The translations under genes and the position numbers were made by a program. The notes beneath the pieces were generated by a model. The model saw only the letters and a list, made by a program, of their open reading frames with translations, searched no databases and was not told the origin of the DNA. Of a stretch of 64,000 bases of DNA, positions 1 to 12,161 are shown in pieces (position 1 is the first letter of the stretch; each line of letters starts with the position of its first letter). Source of the DNA: a bacterium. Its GTDB lineage: Bacteria > UBA8248. The stretch lies in contig CBDATS010000015.1 in assembly GCA_965200245.1 (NCBI GenBank), positions 160,001 to 224,000 on the forward strand, read 5' to 3'.

Positions 1-37
1 TTATTTCGCCTCACACAAAGCAGAAAGGACACACAAC

Positions 38-481
38 ATGGAATTTAACCAGGAGATTACGGTTGCCGCTTCCCGAAAGAAAGTGTGGGACTTCATCTGG
101 CAGGTCGAGGAATTTGCGGCCTGCGTGCCCGGCGTGAAGGACGTGGAAAAAATAGACGATGCGACCTACAGCGTGAGAGTCGAGCAGAAGGTCAGTTTCC
201 TGAAAGCGAGCTTTCATATCCAGATCAACATCGAGGAAGTCCGTGCTCCCGAGTACATCCGTACGGTGGGCGAGGGGAAGGATTCGAAAATCGCGGCGAG
301 CCTCAAGCAGAAAAACGCGGTGATGCTCGAAGCCGTCTCCGAGAACGAAACGAAGGTTTGCATCAACTCTAGTGTCGATGTCTTCGGTAAGCTCGGTTCT
401 CTGGGTTTCAGCGTTATCAAGAACCAGGCGAACAAGATATTCGCCGAGTTTGCCAGGAACGTGAAAGCGAAGGTGGAATAA
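38..481 (+). CDS. CoxG/SRPBCC family protein (CO dehydrogenase subunit G-like)
   Basis: 147-aa ORF with RBS AAAGGA; motifs VWDFI..E.FAACVPGV and FGKLGSLGFSVI typical of CoxG. Confidence 0.85.
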   Translation: MEFNQEITVAASRKKVWDFIWQVEEFAACVPGVKDVEKIDDATYSVRVEQKVSFLKASFHIQINIEEVRAPEYIRTVGEGKDSKIAASLKQKNAVMLEAVSENETKVCINSSVDVFGKLGSLGFSVIKNQANKIFAEFARNVKAKVE

Positions 482-659
482 GTTCAAAAGCCTCTCGCCA
501 TGCGGTCTTCTGCTCCAGATACCTATCTGCCGTATCACACCTGATACAGAGGGCTGTACCAAGTGAGTCCCGACCGAGCCGCATTCAGGAAGCGTATCTA
601 ATTGTGTAACACAATAGGTTAAGATGGACTGTCCTGCCTTTGCGGCCTTGCGTGCGGGT

Positions 660-946
660 TGGGGAGCGGCGAATCTTCCTGCTGCGCTGCCACGGGCCGA
701 TTGTGCGACGCGAGTATTCCTTGAGGATCTCACATCGAACAGGCCTGCATCTTATGGGTCGGCATCCCGGACGAAGCCGGGCTGCCCGCGGCCTTCGTAC
801 CACCGCCTGCGCCACACACGTGGACGTCACAGGGCGTCATGAGCGTGTCGGGCTCATAACCGTCGGGCGCTTGGCCAGGAGACAGGAAGCGAGAGACCAC
901 CATCTGTGCCCATCTCGACGATGCTGTTCTCAAGGACGCCGCAGAG
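660..946 (+). pseudogene. C-terminal remnant of a tyrosine recombinase/phage integrase
   Basis: Stitched across frames: AALPRADCATRVF.EDLTSNR / LWVGIPDEAGLP / HRLRHT (801-818) / WTSQGVMS / VGLITVGRL / GDRKRETTICAHLDDAVLKDAAE. Matches the HxLRH...LGH...Y box, with several frameshifts and the catalytic Tyr position now TGT (905-907). Confidence 0.8.
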
Positions 947-973
947 GGTACGGGATCCGAGACGCCGGACTAT

Positions 974-1107
974 GCGAAATGCGGCGTAGCACTGAGAGCC
1001 ACTTAAGAAAGCGGTATACCGATAAGGCATGTCGGCATCGGTGAGTCGATGGAAAATTTCATGGATTTTGAGCCGATGCTTTCATCAAGGCCGTATGTGG
1101 GGAATAA
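974..1107 (+). pseudogene. Degenerate 3'-terminal fragment of an SRP GTPase (FtsY-like)
   Basis: Reads AKCGVALRAT*ESGIPIRHVGIGESMENFMDFEP, then after a 1-nt shift DAFIKAVCGE*. Matches the FtsY C-terminal consensus AKGG...PIRxIGxGE..EDL..F. Confidence 0.75.
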
Positions 1108-1514
1108 TCTACCCAGAGTCCCATTATTGATGATGATATTGTGAAACACCCTTGCTTATCAACTAAATCTGTCAGAAATTATTTTCAGGAATTTATCTGA
1201 AAGGTCGTGGATTAAAATAAATTTAGCGGATTTTCAGGAAACTTCCTCAGCCCCGAACGAGTCGATTCTCTCCACTGCCATCCCCGCTTTCTCCTATTCT
1301 CCCAGCACCGTAAATGCGGGAAATTGCCTGTGATGTTCCGGGCCGATGATTCTGTTTCGACCGTAGAAGTTTGGGCCTGCGCGTCTTGGGGGATGACTCA
1401 ACAGTGAAACACGCCAATCCTTCACGATACTTTTGGGCGCTTCGTTTCTCACTACGGCAATTGCGTATAACGCATTTGTGATGCTGGTGGACGAAGACGA
1501 CCGCAGAGGGACTG

Positions 1515-1542
1515 TTGATGAAGCCTGATTCCGTGCTAGAAT
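1515..1542 (+). promoter_or_regulatory. Putative sigma70 promoter upstream of the LuxR-type gene
   Basis: TTGATG-16 nt-TAGAAT with extended -10 TG. Confidence 0.4.
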
Positions 1543-1688
1543 AATGTCTTATTTCCTTAGGTTGGATTCAGCGATAATACGAGGTGCCGGGAAAAGAGGG
1601 TCGTGGCCAGTTCTCCGTGGGAACATTTCCCGGCACGTATTCTGAATTGTCTTATTGCGCTGGCAAAACTTAGCTAGGCATCAACCCA

Positions 1689-2279
1689 ATGAAGCCTGCC
1701 ATTTTGAAAGTAGAAGAATCTAGCATGAGAAAATTACTCCAGAATTACAAGCCCCAAGTAATTCTCAAGATAGCCATTTTATTGCCGGCTGCGTTGTTTC
1801 TGATTTACGACCTGATCACCGATGCAAGTTTGGGGGAGGAGTTCGCCTCTACGCATTTTATTATCGAATCGGTTGTATTCTTCTTTGTACTGACCGTCCT
1901 CATTATCAGTTTACGGGATATTGCCAACTTGCGAACGCAACTACAGCAAGAGGAGAGACGAAACAAAATGCTCGCCGGTGAACTAGCCGCTGTCATCGAA
2001 GAACAGATGAGTGAGTGGAAGTTGACCCCCAGCGAAAGAAAAATCGCATGTATGATAGTCAAAGGTTACCGATTTGCCGAAATTGCTGAACTGCGCCAAG
2101 TGAAGGAAAACACTACTCGGTTGCAAGCTACCGCTCTCCACGCAAAGGCTGGCGTGAACGGGCGTGCCGAATTTGTCGCCAAGATCATCCATCACTTACT
2201 AGCCCCCGTCTTGGAAGATACTTCTTCCGACAAGAACCGCCCCACCGTCCCGACTGGCCCAGGCGGTATCTCATCCTAG
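1689..2279 (+). CDS. Membrane-anchored LuxR-family HTH transcriptional regulator
   Basis: Two N-terminal hydrophobic helices, a coiled coil, then WKLTPSERKIACMIVKGYRFAEIAELRQVKENTTR (LuxR HTH). Start may be the second Met (MRKLL). Confidence 0.85.
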   Translation: MKPAILKVEESSMRKLLQNYKPQVILKIAILLPAALFLIYDLITDASLGEEFASTHFIIESVVFFFVLTVLIISLRDIANLRTQLQQEERRNKMLAGELAAVIEEQMSEWKLTPSERKIACMIVKGYRFAEIAELRQVKENTTRLQATALHAKAGVNGRAEFVAKIIHHLLAPVLEDTSSDKNRPTVPTGPGGISS

Positions 2280-2324
2280 AAAATATCAGGTGGCAACACG
2301 AGGGCAATTCTGAGTTGGGGGTTA

Positions 2325-2789
2325 TTACTGACCAATACGGAAAGCCCTGCCTTTACCTTTTACCCAAAGGGCCGCACGGCGCAGCATGCGTAGCCATGGG
2401 CAGAGGATGCGTACGAGTCTTGGATTCGAAGAAAACCATCTTACGAGAATATTGAACCAGTCGTCTCCGCTCGTCATCGCCTCAAGCACCATCATTGCTT
2501 CCGCTCCCTGATGCCGCTGGCCATCCAGGACAAGAATCATCCCATCCTCAATGTCGTATCCTTCCCGTCGCAGTTTGTTGGCCAGTTCGGTCGCCCGATT
2601 GGTGTCAATGAGCCGCAATGGCCGCCCGGTTTGCATCTCGAACCTCGATTTTCTCACGTAGAGACTGCAAAAGGGGCATTCGTCGTCATAAAGCAGAAAG
2701 TCATCTTGCGGGGATACGTCGACGGTTTCGGTTCGGTCGGTTTCTTGTGAATGTGAAGTCGTCAACGCATCTTCTCGTTCCATACTCAT
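2325..2789 (-). CDS. DCC1-like (DUF393) thiol-disulfide oxidoreductase
   Basis: LLYDDECPFC DxxCxxC motif; GMILVLDGQRHQGAEA. Confidence 0.85.
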   Translation of the reverse strand: MSMEREDALTTSHSQETDRTETVDVSPQDDFLLYDDECPFCSLYVRKSRFEMQTGRPLRLIDTNRATELANKLRREGYDIEDGMILVLDGQRHQGAEAMMVLEAMTSGDDWFNILVRWFSSNPRLVRILCPWLRMLRRAALWVKGKGRAFRIGQ

Positions 2790-2927
2790 GTTTATTTTCC
2801 AAAGAATGTCGCATCACGCACGCACAGCCTGCTTTTCAGCAATCGGGCGAAATCAGTCGAGCCCGTGACGGCGATGAGGATTGTATCAGCCTGTCCATTT
2901 CCATGAGAGCGAAGTTATTCAGTATTC

Positions 2928-4325
2928 TCACTGGCCGAAAATAAGTCTCGTGTGCGAAATCACTTTTTTCTTGCCCCTGCGCCTCTCATGAAGAGGTACC
3001 TTTAGGGGCTTGATCCATTTTTGGGGCCAAATCGACCGAGGCACATTCAAGAGGTTGACATCGGGATCGATCAGGCGTTGTCGCCGCCGGCCGTTCAAGG
3101 ATACCTTGGAGTCGACGCGAATCGAGACCACCTTTATTCCTTCCGCCCGCAACCGGTCGCCCAAATAGTAGACGAATTGATGAATCATGTCCGGTCTGGC
3201 GGCCATTTTCTTCGCCTGCCAAGATTTGATGTAGCGGGCGGGGGATATTTTATACTCGTTTCCCGCCTCGTCGGTGACGAGAAATCTCGCCCGACCGGAT
3301 TTGCTGCGAAGCTTCATGTGCCAGGCGTAGAGATGCCCCTCTTCGGTCCAACTCACATTGCCAGGATAGAGCCAGTGCCTAAGTGGCATCAATAGTTGCC
3401 AGGAAATATAAACCACGAGGAATGCAAGCACGGTTCGTGAACAACGACTCGGGCCGGGAGGTGTTGCCGCCTGATATTTTTTCAGGATGAGATATCGCCT
3501 TGGCCAGTTGGGACTGAAGAACACCGTTGAGAGGGCAATGGCGAACCAGGGAAAAATTCCGATATGAAAGATGACGGCGTTGGTGAGATTAAAAAACAGT
3601 ACGCCGACGAACGCGATAACCCTCGTTCGCTTCCACATCAGGAGCGGCACGATGAGGAGGTCGAAGAACAGACCCCCGTAGTTCATGAGCATGACGACCA
3701 ATTCCTGTTTGAACAGGGGGCCGATCAACGGATAATCCGCGCGTTTATGCAACCAGCTTCTTAACGGTTCCCCGGCTAGCCAGTCGGAATTGATCTTGGC
3801 GACTCCGCCGTAGAAATAGGCGATGCCCACCTGTAAGCGCAGGATCCACAGACTCCATGTGGGGATGGTATCCGCTCCCTTGCAGAACCCAAACTTCGCA
3901 TCCAGTGAAACGGCCCGATTCGCCGGAACGATCGCCATTAGGAAGCTCACTAGGCAAACGAGATAAAAATGATTCAGGTAGCGCGCCTGCTCAAGCAGAA
4001 AGATGTAGCTGAAACCGACGAAGAAAAGTGCAGCGGCTACGCGATAGAACAAACCGAAGGTAATGAATAAGGCAAGAACACCCAATCCCAGGAAATGCCA
4101 ATACATTCCGTCGCCAGGCCAAGGAGCGACCCAATCGAACCCGAAGTAGCTAAAATGGAAGTCCGGCGCGATCCAATATTTATGGATCCAACCCTTCTTG
4201 AAATACCGTGCGACTTCCCACAGCATGATCAGCCCGAAAAAAATCCGGACAACCACCAACGAGGCGATATCAAGGGGCTCTGCAAGCCGTTCACGCAACT
4301 CCCCGACCATTTGTTTTGTGCTCAT
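2928..4325 (-). CDS. HTTM-domain / vitamin K-dependent gamma-carboxylase-like membrane protein
   Basis: SLVVVRIFFG, FHFSYFGFDWV, YLNHFYL, YFYGGVAKINSDW (Lys of the carboxylase motif), WTEEGHLYAWHMKLRSK, SLNGR..QRLIDP; multiple TM helices. Confidence 0.9.
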   Translation of the reverse strand: MSTKQMVGELRERLAEPLDIASLVVVRIFFGLIMLWEVARYFKKGWIHKYWIAPDFHFSYFGFDWVAPWPGDGMYWHFLGLGVLALFITFGLFYRVAAALFFVGFSYIFLLEQARYLNHFYLVCLVSFLMAIVPANRAVSLDAKFGFCKGADTIPTWSLWILRLQVGIAYFYGGVAKINSDWLAGEPLRSWLHKRADYPLIGPLFKQELVVMLMNYGGLFFDLLIVPLLMWKRTRVIAFVGVLFFNLTNAVIFHIGIFPWFAIALSTVFFSPNWPRRYLILKKYQAATPPGPSRCSRTVLAFLVVYISWQLLMPLRHWLYPGNVSWTEEGHLYAWHMKLRSKSGRARFLVTDEAGNEYKISPARYIKSWQAKKMAARPDMIHQFVYYLGDRLRAEGIKVVSIRVDSKVSLNGRRRQRLIDPDVNLLNVPRSIWPQKWIKPLKVPLHERRRGKKKVISHTRLIFGQ

Positions 4326-4486
4326 TCCGCGTTCCTCGAACAAGCCTCAAAGTTTTTCATCAGGTTTACGTAAGTTATGCCATGAAATGGCTAAATCCAA
4401 TGGATTGAACACGGGGTGCCTCTATGTGTGTTAACTGTCTAGGAGGCATATTGAATTTAACGCTTCTCATTCTTTGGCATTCGGAT

Positions 4487-5763
4487 TTATGGTGTGCGTT
4501 TGGCTCCGAATACGCCGAGGAGGCTCTGCAGGTTGTCCGCGGTGTTGGCCCTGAAGGTGCCCGCCACCGAACCGGGATGGTCCGTGGGGTCGGAGTGGTT
4601 GCCGAAGAACTTCCCGCCCCACTTGCCCGAGAGCGCGACGCCAGCACCCGTCTCTCCGCTGGTGTCGCCGTCGAAGTTCCCCCCGAGGACGCTGCCGGTG
4701 ACGTCCGCAGATCCCAAGGTCAACGCGGGCAGGGACACGCCCCCATCCGTCCTGCCTCCCGTGATCGTCCCGGAGACGGTTCCCAGTGCAGTCGCGTCCC
4801 CGAAGTTGGCTGTCAGCTCAGCAGTCGCATCGAAATAATCGAACACGGGGTCCGCGTTCGCATCCGCCTTCATCATGTGCACGCCGGTCGCGGGCCCACT
4901 GTAGGTCGCCGTGCCCGTAAGGGCGGCGAGGTTGCCGTTCTCGAAGGGATCGTTGCCGCCCGCCGCAGCGCCCAGGGTGTAGGAACCAGTATAGCTGCCA
5001 TCCTCGGGGTCCTTGTAAATGAACAGCACAAACCCAGCGAGAGATAGTCCGTGTCCGAGTTGCCCTGGCTGTCCGTGTAGGCGTCCCAATTGAAAACGCC
5101 GTTTGTCTTGTCGTTGTGGACTTCAACTCCCTGCCAGCCCAATGCCAGGTCGTCCACCCTTCTCGACGACGCGCCCTGATCCGTCGTGCTCATGGTCGAG
5201 ACCGTGCCGGCGATGCTGCGCTTGAAGGTGAACTGCAGGCCCGCGCTCGCGTCGCGCTCGGCGAGGAAATACGAGGGGTCAGAAACCCTCCCGCCGGGGA
5301 CGTAAGAGGATTGCGTAGTGCTGCTCATCTCCTTCGAGGTGGGCGTGAACCCCAGAGGCCGTGAACTCCCGGCTCTCAGAATGCGTACCGCAGCGCCTCC
5401 CGCCAGACCCGCGTTCTCTCTGACTTCCTTCAGCAACGACCCTCTCAAGGGTGGAGTAGGCGGACCGCCTCCGTCGTCATCGTCGTCGCTGTCGTTATCG
5501 TTGTCGTCGTCATCACCGTCATCATCATCGTCGTCAAAAGGTGTAGGTACAGGCGGAGGCGCCGGATGCGGAGGTGACAGTGTAGGCGGGTTTATGTTTG
5601 TGTAGTCAAGCATAGTGGCGGGCATGACAACGACTCTTGTACTTCTACCGCCACCGTAACCCCAAGTAATGGAAAAAAGCACAAACAACGAGACTGCTAA
5701 GACGAAAACTGAAATTTTCGATTTCGTAAGCAATCGGCACTCACTAGAACTCGGATCAATCAT
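4487..5763 (-). pseudogene. Exported Pro/Asp-rich protein with TbpB-like C-terminal beta-barrel, split by a 1-nt frameshift
   Basis: ORFs 4873..5763 and 4487..5089 join into 425 aa if one base is restored near 5027 (DYLSLGL-W-LFIY). C-terminus has GTATYSGPATG, AELTANFG, GKWGGKFFG, SVAGTF, GVFGAKR. Confidence 0.75.
5473..5535 (-). repeat. GAY-codon low-complexity tract encoding DDDDDDGDDDDNDNDSDDDDD
   Basis: (tcg/tca)n on + strand; 17 Asp in 21 residues, flanked by Pro-rich linkers. Confidence 0.9.
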
Positions 5764-5962
5764 TTCGTCGTCTATATCCTATATCCACGGGATCTTCTCT
5801 GAGATTGGGCTTTTCTTATAATCTCGCCCCCATAGCTATCATAAGAAGTTGTGAACACACCATCTTTGGTTTGCTATATATTGCTTATGCAAACGTTATA
5901 ATTGACGGTCCTGATTTTACGGAGCGCAATGCTGGAGGTTAGAGGAGGTGACTGCCGGCTAG

Positions 5963-6162
5963 GCTGAGCGAAACGGCGTTCCCCAGATTGTCTGCAAGCC
6001 GCTCAGAACGCGCACGGGCGCGCCGCTCCCTTCTGGCGTGACGACGTATTCCTGTCCCTGTATTCCAGGGGCGTTATCGCCTTTCCTGGTTCGGGCATCA
6101 CCGACAACTTTGTCGGCAAGACCAGGCAACTCGGTATACTTGTCCAGCAAGTCGCCGCATAG
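5963..6162 (+). pseudogene. C-terminal remnant of a DUF2493 (SLOG/YspA-like) gene
   Basis: TAG at 5960-5962 where Trp is expected, then AERNGVPQIVCKP, a 1-nt shift near 6002, then NAHGRAAPFWRDD...GVIAFPGSGITDNFVGKTRQLGILVQQVAA*. Confidence 0.75.
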
Positions 6163-6679
6163 GAATTCCGGGCCGCGTCGCGAGTCTCTCGGATGGGGTC
6201 GGTCTACTTTTCCGGACTTCTCCACACCACTCCATCTATTTGCCATTATGGGGTACAGGCGAGCAGGTAACGAGTGCGCACAGAGGGAACATGTAGATGG
6301 CGCCCGTTTGATCAACGGAACATGTGAGAAAGGATCCGTGCGCTGGGGGAACATTCCCAGATATGGGGCGCCACGTGTAATAAGTGCCGCATCACGCTTG
6401 CAACACGTAATGCTTACCCCTGTTGACGGGAATAGGACACAGTACGCATCCTGGGGCAGCCACGGTCGTTTCGCTCAATCGCAGCGACTGCTTCAGGCCG
6501 TTCATATATCGGCCCTTAAGGCCGGTTACATTGCGCCGAATAGGAACGCAACACTTGCCGCCGTTCGACTTTTTTTCGTCACACCTGACGCAATCTTGCC
6601 CGATTTACCTCGATCCCGGTTTGTCAGGTTCGTCATTCATTCCGGTTTATCGGTTGTTTCATACCGGTTTGCTTGGTTT

Positions 6680-6705
6680 GTCATTCCGGCAAAAGCCGAA
6701 ATCCA
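6680..6705. repeat. Single arm of a GTCATTCC..GGAATCC-type palindromic (REP-like) repeat
   Basis: GTCATTCCGGCAAAAGCCGAAATCCA; antisense translation gives the characteristic WISAFAGMT. Confidence 0.55.
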
Positions 6706-6782
6706 TTTTCCCCTGGTCACAGACGAAAGACTCGGATCGAGAATGCGCTGGAACAGACTGTACCGGCAAGGTTTACGGAACC

Positions 6783-7259
6783 TCAGGGGCGCTTGATGAT
6801 CCACTCCTCCATCAGTTCGCAGCCGCTCTCGCGGTAAAGCGCGGAGATGGGGCATCGTCCGTGATGCTGGCGTTTTAGTTCCTCCACCCGTTCGTCGGAC
6901 TCGTCCGTGGTCAAGTGGATTTTCGCCTCCACGTAATCGAAGTTGGGGCTGATGCCGTTGTCCGGGTCCTTGGCACCTCTGGGGTCTGCAGTGCCGCGTA
7001 CCTCCACCTCCTGCGCGATGACGTTGAAATCGAGCCCCTCGGCCACCTTGTTCGTGATGACCGTGATGCAGGCGGAAAGCGCGCCCAGTGCGAGTTCTCG
7101 CGGCGTGGGGCCTGTGTCCGTCCCCCCGCCCTGCGTTGGTTCGTCGGCGATGAAGGCGTGTTTGCACGCTTGTATCTCCACGCGGCAGTCCTCGGATCGC
7201 TTGGCTCTCACCCGGCGTTCCTGTTTGGCCATCACTTCCTTGTCTACAGATTCCACCAT
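6783..7259 (-). CDS. OsmC/Ohr family protein
   Basis: FIADEPTQGGGTDTGPTPRELALGALSAC and RCPI (two Cys). Confidence 0.9.
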   Translation of the reverse strand: MVESVDKEVMAKQERRVRAKRSEDCRVEIQACKHAFIADEPTQGGGTDTGPTPRELALGALSACITVITNKVAEGLDFNVIAQEVEVRGTADPRGAKDPDNGISPNFDYVEAKIHLTTDESDERVEELKRQHHGRCPISALYRESGCELMEEWIIKRP

Positions 7260-7308
7260 CGGAAATTCTCCTTGTCGTATGAATAGGAATGCGTCTTCGC
7301 GTATGCAT

Positions 7309-8370
7309 CTAGTCGAATACCACCGCGGCCCTTCCTGTCACCCGGTTATCGATGAGTGCCTGGAATGCGGTTTCCGTTTCCTGAAGCGGGAAGGTTTCGG
7401 TGACGATGGGCTGAATTCTCCCCTGCTGAATCAGCATAAGCGACTGATTGAGCTCTTCCATCGAACAATAGCGTGATCCGTGTATCTCCTGTGCGAATGT
7501 CAGGAACTGGAGCGGGTCAACGGTGAAATTTGGCGATACATTGTTGTAGGCCGCAGGTGGGCGGTAGCCCACGATCACAAGCTTTCCACCGCGTCCGAGG
7601 CTGGCCACACCGGCTTCGAGCGTCTCGCGCGTGGCCACGTAGTCGATATAAGCGTCTACACCGCGCCCTTCGGTGAGTGAGAGGATTTCCTCCACGGTAT
7701 CGGTCTGTGCGGGGTTCAGAGTGGCGAAGGCCCCGAGTTGCGAGACGGTTTCGAGTTTTTTCTCCGACACGTCGATTCCGATGACGTGGCCACCGCACAC
7801 CTGAGCCATCTGCACCGCGTGAATCGCCACGCCGCCGCCCGCGCCCACTATCGCCACCACGTCGCCGGGCTTGATCTGCGCCTCTGCCACGCAGTTGTGG
7901 TAAGGCGTACAGATGGCGTCCGCTGCAACACAAGCGTCGAGCGAACTCACGCCCTCCGGAATCTTGCACAGATTCACGGCGGGAACGGTTGTGTACTCGG
8001 CGTAGCCGCCGTCCATGACGAGGCCGAAGTATCCCCGGAAATTCTCGCAGAGCGTCTCGCGTCCGCTTCGGCAATAGCGGCAGTTATGGCAGGTGAGATA
8101 GAAGTGGCATGTCACGTGATCGCCCACGCCCACATTCGTCACGTGGGAACCGATTTCGACGACCTTACCAGCGATCTCATGTCCCAGGATTCTCGGGTAT
8201 TCGTCCACTAGGCCCGGTGTACTTCGCATGATCACCAGCGTGAGGCCCACGCCCGTGGCCTGAAGACGCACAAGCGCATCGTTCGGTCCCGGCTGGGGAA
8301 TCGGGACCTCCTCAAGCTGAAACGTGCCGCCCAGTTCATGAAGCCGCATTGCTTTCATCGTGGATGCCAT
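7309..8370 (-). CDS. Zinc-binding (MDR) alcohol dehydrogenase family protein
   Basis: GHE motif, structural Zn CxxCxxC..C, GAGGGVA Rossmann motif; RBS AAGGAGG. Confidence 0.9.
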   Translation of the reverse strand: MASTMKAMRLHELGGTFQLEEVPIPQPGPNDALVRLQATGVGLTLVIMRSTPGLVDEYPRILGHEIAGKVVEIGSHVTNVGVGDHVTCHFYLTCHNCRYCRSGRETLCENFRGYFGLVMDGGYAEYTTVPAVNLCKIPEGVSSLDACVAADAICTPYHNCVAEAQIKPGDVVAIVGAGGGVAIHAVQMAQVCGGHVIGIDVSEKKLETVSQLGAFATLNPAQTDTVEEILSLTEGRGVDAYIDYVATRETLEAGVASLGRGGKLVIVGYRPPAAYNNVSPNFTVDPLQFLTFAQEIHGSRYCSMEELNQSLMLIQQGRIQPIVTETFPLQETETAFQALIDNRVTGRAAVVFD

Positions 8371-8793
8371 GGCGTAGCCTCCTTCCGTCTCATTGGCCGC
8401 TGCGAGTGTACGTGTCTAAATCTTTATAGAACTTTATAAGGGTTTTGCACCCGCCCTGAAAAGAGGCCGTTCGGGTTAGTCGCCTATAGGACCTATAGGA
8501 TGGTGCTCGGGATGGTCGCTTACTCATTTTAGTATAAGTCGAATTGGATCGTAACGCAGATGCCCCATCATGGGCAGCGCGCATCTTCGTCAGCCGACCC
8601 AGCGTGAAACGTCCGATTGTAACATTGCGAATGCGAGAAAAATCTGCCGCGACGAATCCGGTCACGAGCGCATTCGCATAAGGGTTATTCCCGCGAATGA
8701 GCCTTCTTTTCCTGCACTGAACGAGTCCCCATATGTCTATTCCGCGCGAACTCGTGCTAGAATCCGGGAAACACGACATGAAGGAGAAGTATT

Positions 8794-9186
8794 TTGGTAT
8801 TCAAGCTGTTTTTGCTTTTCACGCTGGTCCCCATCGTCGAGTTGATGATTCTCGTCGATCTGGGCGGTGCCATCGGCTTGGCGCCGACGCTGGGAATCGT
8901 GATTCTCACTGGCGCGCTGGGCGCATGGGCGGCAAGAACGCAGGGATTCTACGTGGTCTCGCGTATTCAGGCAGAAATGGCGGGGGGGAGGCTTCCCGGT
9001 GCTGAGATGGTTGAGGGTGCCATGGTGCTCGTGGGTGGTGTGCTGCTCCTGACGCCTGGCCTTCTCACGGATGCCGCCGGTTTCGCCCTTATGGTTCCCG
9101 CCATGCGGGCGGTGCTAAGGGGCTGGCTAACGAGAAAGTTCGAAAAAATGATCAAAGAGGGCAAGGTGCATGTCTACCGGGGCTAG
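8794..9186 (+). CDS. fxsA: FxsA family membrane protein
   Basis: LFTLVPIVEL...GGVLLLTPGLLTDAAG; RBS AAGGAG. Confidence 0.9.
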   Translation: MVFKLFLLFTLVPIVELMILVDLGGAIGLAPTLGIVILTGALGAWAARTQGFYVVSRIQAEMAGGRLPGAEMVEGAMVLVGGVLLLTPGLLTDAAGFALMVPAMRAVLRGWLTRKFEKMIKEGKVHVYRG

Positions 9187-10117
9187 GGTGGAGCGTGTCA
9201 GTTCGCAGCACCTCGATGCGCAGACTACCCTGGGTGCGGAGGCTTTCGGGCTTTCGCGCGAGGAGGTGGTCGGTGGTTTCGGTGCGCCGGGTACGAAGGT
9301 CTGGCTTGTCTGGCCGGGGGGAGGAGGCGATGAGCGTCCGGCAGGTTATTGTCGCATGGTCGTGAACAGGGAAGCGAGAGCTAAGCACAGGGCCTGCATC
9401 GATGCTCTCTATGTGCGACCCGAGGCCAGGAAAGCGGGCTTTGCGCGGCTTCTGCTGGAGGCCGCCCTCGCCGAGGCGCGTGATAATGGCCTAGGCGGTA
9501 TCTGGGCGTACCTGCCCGTTTCGCTCCCGGGGCGTTTCGTGTATCTGAGCGGCGGGCGGAAAGTGCACGACCTCCGTTTTCTGAAGCATGACTCGCTGCA
9601 GGAGTTGGGGACGCCCAGTCTGTCCTCGGGCTATGGGATTCGATCGGCAGCCCTTCCAGAAGATGCGCAATACCTCGCCGATCTTTTCAACGCAACTTTT
9701 GTGAACATGTGGAATTTTAGAAGTCATACGGCTGAAACGATCATCGCTTGGTACAATGCGCCGGACACGGAACCGGAAAATACCTACATCATCGAATATT
9801 TGAATGGCGAATCGGGAAACCCCGAAGGGGTAGGTATGGCGATTCTGGCTGTCGACCCAAGCCGATTGGCCTCGGGTGATAAAGCCGTCTATGTTCCCTA
9901 TATTGGCGTCATGCACGGCCACCGAAGGAGAGGGCTGGGCCGCTTGTTGGTTCAGGCGTCCGCCCGAAGAGCGATCGACTGCGGAGCGGAGGCACTGGAA
10001 CTTATCGCTTCCGCCGCTGACCAGCAGGTGCGTGCCTTTTATCAAAGTCTGAGATTCAGTGAAATGGGAGTTATCAGCGTGTATGAATGGCTCTGCAATA
10101 ATTCTGAATCTACCTGA
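9170..10117 (+). CDS. Tandem GNAT N-acetyltransferase (MshD-like architecture)
   Basis: Two acetyl-CoA motifs, LYVRPEARKAGFA and IGVMHGHRRRGLG; AFYQSLRF. Confidence 0.8.
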   Translation: MSTGARVERVSSQHLDAQTTLGAEAFGLSREEVVGGFGAPGTKVWLVWPGGGGDERPAGYCRMVVNREARAKHRACIDALYVRPEARKAGFARLLLEAALAEARDNGLGGIWAYLPVSLPGRFVYLSGGRKVHDLRFLKHDSLQELGTPSLSSGYGIRSAALPEDAQYLADLFNATFVNMWNFRSHTAETIIAWYNAPDTEPENTYIIEYLNGESGNPEGVGMAILAVDPSRLASGDKAVYVPYIGVMHGHRRRGLGRLLVQASARRAIDCGAEALELIASAADQQVRAFYQSLRFSEMGVISVYEWLCNNSEST

Positions 10118-10131
10118 ATAAACGGTTGTAA

Positions 10132-11409
10132 TTAATTGTTATTTAATCGTAAATAACTTTTTATATAGCCTGATATTTCCGCACGTTTCACTTCGGCCTG
10201 GCGGCTCTCGTTCATATGACGAACGCTAATGACGCCTTTGGCCGCCTCATCCTCACCGAGCAGGAATACGAAACCGGCGCCTGAGCGATCGGCACGCTTC
10301 ATCTGGCTTTTCATGCTTCCCCCGCCAAAAGATCGTTCTGTGCGAATACCCTGTGCGCGCAATTCGGTAGCGAGTTCGAATACTTGAGCCTGCGCCGCTT
10401 CGCCGAGGGATACGATATATACCTGTGCTCCCTCTTTGAGGGTGGGGGCCTTTTTGCCCGCCAGTTGCAGGAGGCGTTCCACACCGACGGCGAAGCCAAT
10501 CGCAGGCGTGGGCGGGCCGCCCAACTCCTCGACGAGGGCGTCGTATCGACCCCCGCCACACACCGCGTTTTGCGCACCAAGGCTCTCGCTCGTTACCTCG
10601 AAGACGGTGAGGCAGTAATAGTCAAGGCCGCGAACGAGCCTCGGGTTTATCTCATACGCGACGCCCGCGCTCTGGATGAGCCGGCATACGCTCTCCAGAT
10701 GTTCCCGGCAGGCATCGTTCCAGAACGCATCTATTCTGGGCGCACGCGCGATAATCTCTTGGTGGCCCGGGTCCTTGCTGTCCAGAAAACGCAGTGGGTT
10801 GCGCTCGATCCGTTCGGCGATTTCTGCGTCCAGATGCTTCGTTTCTTTCCTGAGATATTCCTGGAGGGCGGCGGTATATGCCGGACGGCATTTCTTGTCG
10901 CCCAGATTGTTGATCTGGAGTGATAGTCCTTCGACCCCCATCGCGTCCAGAAATTCCATGAGCATCACAATGAGTTCGGCGTCGACCGCCGGGTCCTCTG
11001 AGCCAAAGACCTCGGCGTCGATTTGATGAAACTGCCGCTGACGGCCCGCTTGGGGACGCTCGTAGCGGAACATGGGACCCATGCAGAAGAGTTTCGAGAC
11101 GCCGGGGCGGTTGTGAAGGCCGTTTTGCACGTACGCGCGGCAGATCGAGGCGGTCGCCTCCGGGCGGAGGGTGATGGAGTCGCCCCCCTTGTCCTCGAAG
11201 GTGTACATCTCCTTGGAAACGATGTCGGTTCCCTCGCCGATGCCGCGCGAGAAAAGTTCCGTGTGCTCGAACACGGGCACCCGAATTTCCCCGTATCCGT
11301 ATCGCGCAAAAATCTCTCGTGCCAGACGTTCGGCTCCCTGCCAGTTTGCCGATTCTTCGGGCAGAATGTCTTTCACGCCGCGCACCGCCGTGAGTCTGGG
11401 ACGCGCCAT
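10132..11409 (-). CDS. hisS: Histidine--tRNA ligase
   Basis: LRPEAT, FRYERPQAGR.RQFHQ, LVRGLDYY, GGGRYD. Confidence 0.98.
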   Translation of the reverse strand: MARPRLTAVRGVKDILPEESANWQGAERLAREIFARYGYGEIRVPVFEHTELFSRGIGEGTDIVSKEMYTFEDKGGDSITLRPEATASICRAYVQNGLHNRPGVSKLFCMGPMFRYERPQAGRQRQFHQIDAEVFGSEDPAVDAELIVMLMEFLDAMGVEGLSLQINNLGDKKCRPAYTAALQEYLRKETKHLDAEIAERIERNPLRFLDSKDPGHQEIIARAPRIDAFWNDACREHLESVCRLIQSAGVAYEINPRLVRGLDYYCLTVFEVTSESLGAQNAVCGGGRYDALVEELGGPPTPAIGFAVGVERLLQLAGKKAPTLKEGAQVYIVSLGEAAQAQVFELATELRAQGIRTERSFGGGSMKSQMKRADRSGAGFVFLLGEDEAAKGVISVRHMNESRQAEVKRAEISGYIKSYLRLNNN

Positions 11410-11411
11410 CG

Positions 11412-12161
11412 CTATCCTCCAAAAGCCGCTTCGAGCAGGCGGGGAAGGGCGACGCCCGAGGGCTCCTGTACCGCTTCGTTCATATAGGGGCTGATCTCTG
11501 TCGGCTCGGGATTCACCTCAAGTACGAACGCACCGCCTCTCGAAGCTGTCATGGGCATCGAGGCAGCCGGCTGCACCACGGCGGAGGTGCCCGCCACGAT
11601 CAGGTAATCACAATCATCTACCGCAACCAGTGCCCGGCGCAACTGTTCGGGGTCGAGCATCTCGCCGAACCACACTACGTGGGGGCGCAGAATGCTATCA
11701 CACACATCGCACTGCGGGGGAAGGGGGTCTATCGGAACCTCGCGGTTCTCCCACGCGAGCGTGAAGCGCTCACATCCGGGGTTCGTGCAGCGAACGCGCC
11801 AGATGTTGCCGTGCAACTCCACGATTTCATTTGACCCGGCAATGCGGTGGAGGTTGTCGATGTTCTGTGTGATGAGGGTGAAGCGATTGAAGTGATCTTC
11901 CAGTGAGGCTATGGCGTACTGGCCCGCGTTGGGGGTTAAGGGAGCGAGCACCTCGCGGCGGTAGTTGTAGAATTCCCAGACGAGCTTGGGGTCGGCGCGA
12001 AATGACTCGGGTTTTGCCAGCGAGGTAGCACTGTACTCGCGCCAGAGGCCGCCCGTCCGTCGGAATGTGGGCACACCACTTTCCGCACTCACGCCCGCTC
12101 CGGTGAGGACGACCACCGATTCGGACTGCTTGAGGGCGTCTATCGCCCGGCGACTGAGCAT
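11412..12161 (-). CDS. cobB: NAD-dependent protein deacylase (class III sirtuin)
   Basis: GAGVSAESGVPTFR, YxxR, QNIDNLH, LHG, LRPHVVWFGE, GTSAVVQPAA; start taken at MLSRR. Confidence 0.93.
   Translation of the reverse strand: MLSRRAIDALKQSESVVVLTGAGVSAESGVPTFRRTGGLWREYSATSLAKPESFRADPKLVWEFYNYRREVLAPLTPNAGQYAIASLEDHFNRFTLITQNIDNLHRIAGSNEIVELHGNIWRVRCTNPGCERFTLAWENREVPIDPLPPQCDVCDSILRPHVVWFGEMLDPEQLRRALVAVDDCDYLIVAGTSAVVQPAASMPMTASRGGAFVLEVNPEPTEISPYMNEAVQEPSGVALPRLLEAAFGG

Follow-up and report, generated by a model that had tools for sequence, protein, structure and literature searches.

A four-gene cassette was identified in the window, the whole 64,000-nucleotide stretch of bacterial DNA that was analyzed. 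It consists of a convergent LuxR-like regulator gene and genes for a DCC1-like CxxC protein, an HTTM/VKGC enzyme (a vitamin K-dependent carboxylase homolog), and a TbpB-fold poly-Asp protein. The HTTM enzyme is encoded beside the only poly-Asp protein of its genome, an arrangement suggesting that such bacterial carboxylase homologs act on exported proteins rich in aspartate. The best explanation may be quinol-dependent carboxylation of exported poly-Asp tracts by the HTTM enzyme of the cassette, a reading to which we assign a probability of roughly 40%. The cassette is mobile, and the copy in the window is partly decayed. Its features are as follows.

1689..2279, plus strand: LuxR/GerE-like regulator with a membrane anchor; its gene converges with the DCC gene and is the fourth one conserved in the cassette.
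2247..2299, no strand assigned: 54-nt copy (89% identity) of an internal segment of the HTTM gene (3461-3514); it sits in inverted orientation at the regulator gene's 3' end.
2325..2789, minus strand: DCC1-like CxxC protein of 154 aa with a CPFC motif (Pfam PF04134, 30.1 bits; cut-off 27.8).
2928..4343, minus strand: intact vitamin K-dependent carboxylase homolog, HTTM plus VKGC lumenal domain (PF05090, E = 6.6e-89; PF22777, E = 1.4e-45).
4487..5763, minus strand: gene for a single-module TbpB-barrel surface protein with an N-terminal anchor and a poly-Asp linker (frames 4873-5763 and 4487-5089).
5027..5028, minus strand: 1-nt deletion (frameshift), located by DNA alignment with both modules of the relative at locus L007.
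5473..5535, minus strand: poly-Asp tract, candidate carboxylation site (residues 77-97, DDDDDDGDDDDNDNDSDDDDD; 17 D in 21 residues).

A preliminary description of this DNA had listed the three minus-strand genes with gaps of about 140–160 nt, in agreement with the intergenic distances measured here (138 nt and 143–161 nt), and had named conserved linkage in relatives as a check. In a survey of the genus, the cassette was detected in 4 of 23 genomes, and the four-gene unit is present in all four HTTM-bearing ones as well as on two metagenome contigs; regulator, DCC, HTTM, and poly-Asp genes are colocated in G011, G014, and G020 and on L090/L091. None of the genes flanking the cassette in the window was found near it in loci L007-L009. 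One pair of flanking ORFs is common to L007 and L008, and L009 has different ones, indicating at least three chromosomal contexts. All four genes are kept across these contexts, showing that the cassette moves as a unit. The dN/dS values are 0.16–0.28 for all four genes, the part 3' of the frameshift included.

Around the cassette, the window contains CoxG-like, OsmC-like, and ADH-like genes (part of the ORFs in 1-12000 were scanned against Pfam). ORFs in the gene-poor flanks (approximately 480-1690 and 5764-6780) had no Pfam match, and tRNA and Rfam scans of the window gave no matches. A promoter/terminator scan of 1500-6200 returned counts at the level of shuffled sequence and is uninformative on operon structure. 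RNA-library contigs cover only 1600-2463 and 5071-5540 (parts of the regulator, DCC, and poly-Asp genes), which is no proof of transcription, and the absence of such cover over the HTTM gene carries no meaning.

The HTTM gene is the only one in the 3.68-Mb genome. Its product scored 298.4 bits against PF05090 and 155.3 bits against PF22777, the lumenal/clamp domain (cut-off 27.7 for both), and the ATG at 4325 is the more likely start, giving a 465-aa protein (P0001). The enzyme is shown to be intact and under purifying selection (dN/dS = 0.16). It aligns with human GGCX chains (PDB 9wfn, 9l20, 9bvk, and others) over residues 20–459 (E = 2.3e-43), covering both HTTM and lumenal domain. The NH and GxxK(I/L)xxDW motifs described before are present as N124-H125 and G180-V-A-K183-I-N-S-D187-W188. 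In the alignment with 9wfn_A, N124/H125 correspond to N159/H160, K183 to K218, W188 to W223, D228 to D263, F264 to F299, K348 to R406, and R383 to H440, so that both the catalytic Lys and the His, whose match to GGCX had been proposed as a check, fall into place; GGCX M401 is conserved as well. K183, W188, and D228 are invariant in the 25 sequences of alignment A1, equivalents of K218 and W223 occur in 80 of 80 genome HTTM loci, and those of Asn159, His160, and Phe299 are invariant. The alignments show that the enzyme keeps the GGCX residues that would serve quinol deprotonation and CO2 handling. By homology, its active site is probably on the noncytoplasmic side and its substrates are probably exported proteins, as for GGCX.

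Several differences from GGCX were also observed. The human enzyme has 758 aa and the bacterial protein 465–471 aa; the window has no Gla-domain or propeptide-type substrate, the poly-Asp tract being the candidate instead; and the redox neighbor is a soluble DCC protein, not VKOR. Moreover, the position of GGCX Tyr395 is occupied by His (H337). According to the available text of PMC12647623, Tyr395 is hydrogen-bonded to the Glu carboxylate and stacks on the preceding residue. His occupies this position in 73 of the 80 genome loci of the first set, and Tyr or Phe in 24 of 27 Bacteroidota loci.

The poly-Asp gene had been described as encoding an exported TbpB-like protein with an Asp tract. The tract, flanked by Pro-rich stretches, stands, as does an N-terminal hydrophobic anchor, but the gene is split by the 1-nt deletion near 5027/5028, which hits the Trp codon of a conserved SLG(S/T)W motif. 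Contigs of two studies carry the deletion too: one from run X1 covers 1600-6000 without difference or gap, and one from X3 covers 4337-6000, with a single substitution but no gap. In relatives, the ORF is intact, is 926–990 aa long, and comprises two modules; the gene in the window is a recent pseudogene, shrunk to one module. A truncated product of 296 aa would still hold the anchor and the tract. The TbpB-like label fits in part: PF01298 matches the C-terminal part only (4487-5089; 32 bits, cut-off 26; E = 2e-7), while no Cys follows the N-terminal hydrophobic segment as a lipobox would require, and NCBIfam slam_lipo is below its cut-off (28.4 vs. 80 bits). The protein shares the C-terminal eight-stranded PF01298-type barrel with the Slam-dependent lipoproteins of the TbpB/LbpB type, but it carries its acidic tract in the linker at the N-terminus rather than in a loop of the barrel, and HTTM-linked copies lack a lipobox, unlike their paralogs.

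The tract goes with a neighboring HTTM gene. A tract of at least 12 D in 20 residues occurs exactly once in all six frames of the 3.68-Mb genome, 1.1 kb from the sole HTTM gene. In the genus, a D6 DNA pattern hits the cassette in all four HTTM-positive genomes, with only one hit elsewhere in them, and is absent from 15 of 19 HTTM-negative genomes. HTTM-adjacent copies of the family, including P0121, P0124, and P0125, have poly-D linkers. Homologs with approximately 50% identity and genus paralogs (L232 and L234-L237) have no more than 4–6 D in any 20 residues; most of these proteins are lipoproteins with G/P/M/Q-rich linkers, and the paralogs have LAGC lipoboxes. The poly-Asp tract is therefore shown to be confined, within this family, to HTTM-adjacent members (five paralogs elsewhere were examined), which bears out the earlier link between acidic tract and HTTM.

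The neighborhood survey for acidic-tract proteins proposed in the preliminary description extended this link to other phyla. In other lineages, 12 of the 177 loci (1.88 Mb) have a poly-D ORF at most 6 kb from HTTM, versus 2 of 98 control windows (1.96 Mb; rate test, P-value = 0.005), a roughly 6- to 10-fold excess to be read with the facts that the control windows (20 kb each) are larger than the HTTM windows, come from only 25 genomes, and may represent core genome, that HTTM and poly-D genes may both favor accessory regions, and that related genomes in the HTTM-locus counts are not independent. Among 11 residues tested for tract enrichment near HTTM (D, E, K, S, G, N, R, A, P, T, and Q), only D was enriched. 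All 12 positive loci have His at the Tyr395 position (12/118 His-type vs. 0/56 others; Fisher P-value = 0.008), a split that was examined after the replication results although the residue had been flagged earlier. The proteins encoded by the poly-D neighbors, most of them exported, are not related to one another (Kazal repeats, lipoproteins, a pseudopilin, a TadE/vWA-like protein, and T9SS-type proteins), and at least 6–8 changes of the poly-D label are needed on the HTTM tree; the link arose repeatedly, across unrelated proteins and phyla. In G061, G063, and G064, the sole D7 run of each genome adjoins HTTM. Two further D7 hits that appeared to be near HTTM (G104/L051 and G071/L016) were rejected, as they lie on other contigs.

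A possibility of some weight is that these genes move jointly but do not encode an enzyme and its substrate. The poly-Asp tract would then be an ordinary polyanionic spacer or cation-binding tether, HTTM-DCC would have a different target (such as some other protein, a lipid, or a small molecule) or work only as a quinol epoxidase/oxidase, and the island would be shared because all its products serve the envelope. LbpB, a member of the TbpB family, has poly-acidic loops without any carboxylase, and the Leptospira VKGC ortholog reportedly epoxidizes vitamin K and lacks Glu-carboxylase activity on peptides; to our knowledge, no Asp-rich substrate was tried with it. HTTM neighborhoods are also very heterogeneous. 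A poly-D neighbor is present at only approximately 7% of all HTTM loci and at 10% of those of His type, leaving 165 of 177 without one. Two replication sets, mostly of Tyr/Phe type, reproduced the link weakly (0/32 for paralogs and 1/27 for new Bacteroidota genomes). Simple co-travel, however, does not lead one to expect the uniqueness of the tract in its genome and its restriction to the HTTM-adjacent paralog, an excess seen for Asp and for none of the ten other residues, a repeated origin restricted to His-type enzymes, or the retention of all four genes in at least three contexts.

It is improbable that the enzyme carboxylates Glu, as GGCX does, or another residue, such as the Glu of a conserved helix after the tract (GSLLKEVxEN...), with poly-Asp serving as a propeptide-like docking or exosite element on the basic periplasmic domain. 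All Glu-carboxylate-binding residues of GGCX but Tyr395 are kept, and the region equivalent to the GGCX pocket is lined by basic residues (K348, K379, and R383); GGCX itself requires an exosite-bound propeptide, according to the available part of PMC12647623. On the other hand, the helix motif also occurs in paralogs P0127 and P0128, which have neither a poly-D tract nor an HTTM neighbor, several poly-D neighbors in other phyla contain little besides Asp-rich sequence (L023 and L283), and Glu tracts show no enrichment near HTTM (1/79 vs. 1/98 controls).

The DCC gene (dN/dS = 0.23) follows HTTM in every cassette copy, its orthologs being 65–70% identical, and the CPFC motif is present in the DCC proteins of the window and of L007-L009. 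It had been proposed as a redox partner of HTTM, but linkage of the two as a general rule was not supported: no DCC was found among the neighbor ORFs of 23 HTTM loci, and one among 149 small neighbor ORFs of L034-L085. A narrow HMM built from four DCC orthologs recovered only genus copies, and tblastn with the DCC, regulator, and TbpB parts of the window gave matches in genus-level loci only. The DCC-HTTM linkage is nearly confined to the genus, rare fusions excepted, one of which (P0078, with DCC N-terminal to HTTM) is among the 120 HTTM homologs listed. Because the DCC protein of the window has no signal peptide and DCC is N-terminal in this fusion, it is probably cytoplasmic. A second DCC gene is present elsewhere in the genome.

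These data also bear on a reading of HTTM-DCC as a quinone-linked thiol-redox module, similar to DsbB/VKOR, for the oxidative folding or maturation of exported proteins and not as a carboxylase. This is very improbable. There is a CxxC partner, VKOR was not found in the genome, the poly-D neighbor at L022 is a Cys-rich Kazal-repeat protein, and Bacillus subtilis SdpB, an HTTM protein, takes part in the maturation of a disulfide-containing peptide. Nevertheless, the candidate target in the window has almost no Cys, the DCC protein is probably cytoplasmic and is missing from nearly all other loci, and no variation was seen at the equivalents of F299 (CO2 pocket) and N159/H160 (carboxylate binding).

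Carboxylation of the poly-Asp tract might proceed as follows, judging from homology and gene neighborhood. The enzyme would be embedded in the cytoplasmic membrane, its active site facing the periplasm. With menaquinol, O2, and CO2/bicarbonate, it would deprotonate and carboxylate the side chains of Asp residues in the poly-Asp linker, the part of the anchored protein that would lie close to the membrane. Two MqnA/MqnD-family genes in the genome make menaquinone plausible. By analogy with the conversion of Glu to Gla, modification would fall on the carbon adjacent to the side-chain carboxylate and yield beta-carboxy-Asp, and with it a dense malonate-like patch that may bind metals such as Ca2+. 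His337, which takes the place of the GGCX Tyr395 that anchors the substrate dipeptide, may adapt the pocket to acidic Asp-Asp substrates. The least certain step is that the cytoplasmic DCC protein would supply thiol reducing power for recycling the quinone or its epoxide. Asp carboxylation had been suggested from the start; the conserved unit, the catalytic residues, and the tie between tract and HTTM speak for it, and the limited range of DCC, the pseudogene state of the substrate, and the weak replication speak against it.

As a precedent, the earlier reading had cited MloH of the malonomycin pathway in Streptomyces. In the available parts of PMC12186529, PMC12647623, and the preprint 10.64898/2026.08.19.745780, MloH is a bacterial VKGC ortholog carboxylating an aspartyl unit; two of the three term the reaction alpha-carboxylation. 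The substrate of MloH is a PKS-NRPS intermediate rather than a ribosomal protein, and no PKS/NRPS genes adjoining the cassette were noted among the ORFs listed for 1-12000, part of which were scanned against Pfam. As far as the available text of the preprint goes, a Melghirimyces HTTM-DCC fusion with a DUF5819 partner is proposed as a bacterial vitamin K-type carboxylase complex, with no substrate proposed (10.64898/2026.08.19.745780). HTTM is likewise physically coupled to a DCC1-like domain there, but that DCC domain forms the C-terminal part of the fusion and the lumenal clamp is replaced by an independent DUF5819 protein, whereas in the window DCC has a gene of its own and the enzyme itself contains the lumenal domain. 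A horizontally acquired homolog is known from Leptospira (PMC4555120, as partly available).

Bacterial VKGC homologs are very numerous (at least 4225 proteins with E ≤ 0.001 among 8000 candidates scored), and the malonomycin intermediate is the sole bacterial substrate named in the parts of the literature surveyed. Our literature search returned no paper linking HTTM enzymes to poly-Asp proteins. We know of no enzyme identified for beta-carboxy-aspartate modification. The present analysis offers exported poly-Asp tracts as a candidate substrate class, His at the Tyr395 position as a candidate specificity residue, and natural candidate enzyme-substrate pairs from at least 6–8 independent lineages. 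If true, carboxylation of these tracts would introduce poly-beta-carboxy-Asp as a new kind of protein modification, together with a novel CO2-fixing reaction on proteins driven by O2/quinol, and would explain the role of VKGC-type enzymes in bacteria. A bolder generalization seems rather unlikely: His-type homologs would be protein aspartate carboxylases making poly-beta-carboxy-Asp from the poly-Asp tracts of exported proteins tethered to the membrane, as an extreme Ca2+/metal-binding or mineral-nucleating surface in sponge symbionts and several other phyla, with the Tyr395-to-His change determining specificity for Glu versus Asp.

The regulator gene (dN/dS = 0.20 vs. L007) has orthologs of 62–77% identity that adjoin DCC in L007, L008, L009, L010, L090, and L091. 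Both of its profile matches are under threshold: GerE of Pfam scores 17.1 bits (cut-off 23.5), and LIC13292_fam of NCBIfam scores 51.8 bits (cut-off 200). The inverted 54-nt copy of the HTTM segment at its 3' end, absent from the equivalent place in L007, L008, L009, and L090, is most likely a rearrangement scar.

As the preliminary description of this region had it, a DCC gene, an HTTM gene and a poly-Asp gene lie together on the minus strand. Profile matches, coordinates and intergenic gaps (138 nt and 143–161 nt) all agree with this arrangement and therefore confirm it. Together with a regulator-like gene, the cassette contains the following features:

1689–2279, plus strand: membrane-anchored LuxR/GerE-like protein (GerE, 17.1 bits, cut-off 23.5; LIC13292_fam, 51.8 bits, cut-off 200; both below threshold)
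2325–2789, minus strand: DCC1-like protein with a CPFC motif (PF04134, 30.1 bits vs. 27.8)
2928–4343, minus strand: full-length vitamin K-dependent carboxylase homologue (PF05090, E-value 6.6e-89; PF22777 lumenal domain, E-value 1.4e-45)
4487–5763, minus strand: poly-Asp/TbpB-like gene in two frames (N-terminal frame 4873–5763, C-terminal frame 4487–5089)
5473–5535, minus strand: poly-Asp tract DDDDDDGDDDDNDNDSDDDDD, 17 D in 21 residues

The HTTM gene probably starts at 4325, yielding a protein of 465 aa (P0001). Frame 4873–5763 encodes, in order, a hydrophobic anchor, a Pro-rich segment, the tract, a second Pro-rich segment and a conserved helix, and the C-terminal frame 4487–5089 matches the TbpB beta-barrel (PF01298, 32 bits vs. 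26). On either side (480–1690 and 5764–6780, approximately 1.2 and 1.0 kb) only short ORFs without a Pfam match were detected, which leaves gene-poor DNA at both borders of the cassette. tRNA and Rfam scans of the window found no family.

To characterize the HTTM protein, we aligned it with human gamma-glutamyl carboxylase (GGCX). Residues 20–459 align to GGCX chains (phmmer, E-value 2.3e-43; chain position + 31 gives human numbering), and the catalytic Lys and His expected from the earlier proposal are in place (K183/K218 and H125/H160).

Residues of the window enzyme and their GGCX counterparts
N124/H125: N159/H160
K183: K218
W188: W223
D228: D263
F251: F286
F264: F299
M343: M401
K348: R406
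K379: R436
R383: H440

Except for the last two (K379 and R383), all of these are invariant in a 25-sequence alignment (A1). There is one clear difference from GGCX: the window enzyme has H337 where GGCX has Tyr395. According to a study of GGCX, Tyr395 hydrogen-bonds the carboxylate of the substrate Glu and stacks on the residue directly preceding it, and this "dipeptide anchor" permits processive carboxylation, activity being impaired in Y395A (PMC12647623). By every sequence criterion but Tyr395, the HTTM protein belongs to the VKGC/HTTM family, and by homology its active site is predicted to lie on the non-cytoplasmic face. Its gene context is unlike that of MloH, the Streptomyces malonomycin VKGC orthologue. 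Two MqnA/MqnD-family genes are present in the window genome, which therefore probably makes menaquinone. No VKOR was found in this genome (95.8% complete), and a second DCC gene is located elsewhere in it.

We then analyzed the distribution of poly-D tracts, defined as at least 12 D in 20 residues. A six-frame scan of the 3.68-Mb genome revealed exactly one, that of the cassette. The four HTTM-positive genomes of the genus have 1, 3, 6 and 9 matches to a D6 DNA pattern, all but one within the cassette; no match occurs in 15 of the 19 HTTM-negative genomes. One 8-Mb "genome" of the genus (G015) gave 104 and 108 matches to the reversed control pattern, vs. 0 in every other genome, pointing to simple repeats or a mixed bin. 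A search with the TbpB-like module found only 45 homologues. Among the 25 that were read, poly-D linkers occur in those with at least 78% identity and the N-terminus included (P0121, P0124 and P0125); most full-length homologues of approximately 50% identity are lipoproteins (LAGCGGGG...) whose linkers are rich in G/P/M/Q and carry no poly-D. The paralogues of the genus that were examined away from HTTM (L232, L234–L237) reach a maximum of 4–6 D per 20 residues, and the window genome contains no other TbpB-like paralogue.

The window genome has a single HTTM gene, and HTTM was detected in 3 of 22 other genomes of the genus (G011, G014 and G020). In these three genomes and in two metagenome contigs (L090 and L091, 86% identity), the regulator, DCC, HTTM and poly-Asp/TbpB genes are arranged alike. 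None of six proteins flanking the cassette in the window (CoxG-like, OsmC-like, ADH, ORF 8794–9186, GNAT and HisS) was found within the 20-kb loci of the three genomes (L007–L009). A flanking ORF pair is common to L007 and L008, and other ORFs flank L009. Since its flanks in the window, in L007/L008 and in L009 all differ, the cassette occurs in at least three chromosomal contexts. Values of dN/dS are 0.16–0.28 across the four genes, all of which are under purifying selection; the cassette is real and conserved. Another metagenome contig (L128:1809-2321) has a short HTTM piece (nt 1809–2175, 94% identity) and, after it, what is left of a DCC C-terminus (nt 2220–2321), an arrangement that resembles a decayed version of this four-gene cassette.

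In the window genome itself the substrate-candidate gene is broken. In L007 the orthologue is intact and has the motif SLG(S/T)WL(Y/F)IYKDPEDG in each of its two modules; alignment with L007 places one missing base in the Trp codon of this motif in the window, near 5027/5028. A contig from a sequencing run of a different study (X1) covers 1600–6000 with zero differences and zero gaps, and one from another run (X3) covers 4337–6000 with one substitution and no gap. Thus, the deletion is present in assemblies from two studies, of which either run may be the source of the window DNA. The holders of the matching contigs are sponge metagenomes. Relative to L007, the poly-Asp gene has dN/dS values of 0.28 ahead of the break and 0.23 beyond it, which indicate that the break is recent. 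Poly-Asp ORFs of the relatives are 926–990 aa long and combine two handle-and-barrel modules with several poly-D/N tracts; the window's gene has a single module and a single tract. In addition, an inverted 54-nt copy of an HTTM-internal segment (3461–3514, 89% identity) lies at the regulator's 3' end (2247–2299). This copy alters the regulator C-terminus and is without counterpart in the relatives, which is further evidence of local rearrangement. The two segments could pair as a long-range stem if the HTTM-DCC transcript passes 2325.

A survey of HTTM homologues for neighboring exported proteins with acidic tracts had been proposed. An excess was observed in other lineages, but two replication sets reproduced it poorly. 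Of 79 HTTM loci from outside the genus (±6 kb, 0.85 Mb), drawn from the best 80 of more than 574 in genome contigs, 9 contain a poly-D ORF, as do 2 of 39 non-genus metagenome loci. The tracts are 94–5149 nt from HTTM, on the same strand in 8 of 11 cases. Their proteins are mutually unrelated (Kazal repeats, three lipoproteins, a repeat protein, two T9SS-type proteins, a pseudopilin and a TadE/vWA-like protein), most with export signals as judged by reading. G061, G063 and G064 each have a single D7 run in the entire genome, and it adjoins HTTM; D7 runs elsewhere are common in other HTTM genomes (at least one in 21 of 40). The matched controls, totaling 1.96 Mb, were 98 windows of 20 kb from 25 of these genomes, each 50–200 kb away from HTTM. 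Only two, both from Nannocystis, have a poly-D tract, and none has at least 13 D, compared with 9/79 (Fisher P-value = 0.012) and 8/79 (P-value = 0.0013), respectively, of the loci from the best 80 of more than 574. Tracts of E, K, S, G, N, R, A, P, T or Q showed no enrichment near HTTM. On a FastTree phylogeny of 98 HTTM sequences, from which rows with internal stops or partial genes (including L011, L071, L090 and L091) were omitted, the 11 poly-D rows need eight changes, at least six of them forced by supported branches. In the omitted L011 (G061:C1:2741794-2743143, an Entotheonellaceae MAG), the HTTM gene (76% identity) has one in-frame TGA, and the poly-Asp ORF 2.9 kb upstream is a 73-codon open frame without a start codon; long-read errors, decay or recoding could be responsible.

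The replication sets comprised 32 paralogous HTTM loci of the same genomes, none with poly-D, and 27 loci from 24 new Bacteroidota genomes, one with poly-D. Pooled, 12 of 177 loci (1.88 Mb) vs. 2 of 98 controls (1.96 Mb) have a tract (conditional binomial P-value = 0.005). The residue at the Tyr395 position, flagged earlier, was tabulated after these results. His occupies it in 73 of the 80 loci that make up the first genome set (the best 80 of more than 574), in 31 of the 38 metagenome loci that could be scored and in 14 of the 32 paralogues. For the Bacteroidota loci the count is 3 of 27, and 24 of the 27 have Tyr or Phe. All poly-D-adjacent enzymes are of the His type, including the sole Bacteroidota match (L283). 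A poly-D neighbor was thus present in 12 of 118 His-type loci vs. 0 of 56 others (Fisher P-value = 0.008), and the His-type rate also exceeds that of the controls (P-value = 0.0003), with related genomes in these statistics not independent. That the poly-Asp link is confined to His-type enzymes is a sharpened hypothesis rather than proof. L297, also one of the three Bacteroidota loci with His at this position, has a tract rich in D and E approximately 1.7 kb from HTTM. In L283 (1231–7278), two small membrane proteins, a putative exosortase pair, are encoded after the HTTM gene on its strand. Approximately 4.3 kb beyond them lies the gene of a 146-aa signal-peptide protein that consists of D/G/Y repeats and has a hydrophobic segment and a KKKK tail at its end.

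The gene content, conservation, intact catalytic residues and tract exclusivity established for the cassette carry an enzyme-substrate hypothesis which is plausible and, on purely comparative grounds, moderately supported. By analogy with GGCX, the enzyme would use menaquinol, O2 and CO2/bicarbonate. A strong base would take a proton next to the side-chain carboxylate of an Asp in the membrane-proximal linker, and CO2 would then be added. His337, replacing the hydrophobic stacking platform of Tyr395, might allow an acidic preceding residue to be tolerated, and K348 and R383 may neutralize the product, the part played in GGCX by their counterparts R406 and H440. In this sponge-associated bacterium, the modified surface protein would carry a polyanionic, metal-chelating patch. 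Like Gla, beta-carboxy-Asp loses its added carboxyl group in acid. As far as we found, the hypothesis is unreported: no literature linking HTTM enzymes with poly-Asp proteins was found in a search lying outside bioRxiv supplements and paywalled papers.

The DCC protein, predicted to lie on the cytoplasmic side, may recycle the quinone. Its linkage to HTTM holds for the cassette and for rare fusions but not in general, as Pfam scans detected DCC in 0 of 131 neighbor ORFs of L011–L033 and in 1 of 149 small ORFs (≤330 aa) near HTTM in L034–L085, a set that leaves aside 11 further small ORFs and the long ORFs. Among the 120 HTTM homologues listed, one (P0078) matches PF04134, with a DCC-like segment N-terminal to HTTM that has no CxxC at its N-terminus. 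An HTTM-DCC fusion with a DUF5819 partner is described in a 2026 preprint (10.64898/2026.08.19.745780). Going by these two fusions, some lineages do couple HTTM and DCC; within this clade, the coupling is cassette-specific and not general. The commonest Pfam family in the 149 small ORFs of L034–L085 was the outer-membrane beta-barrel PF13505 (7/149), followed by ECF-type sigma factor domains (4/149).
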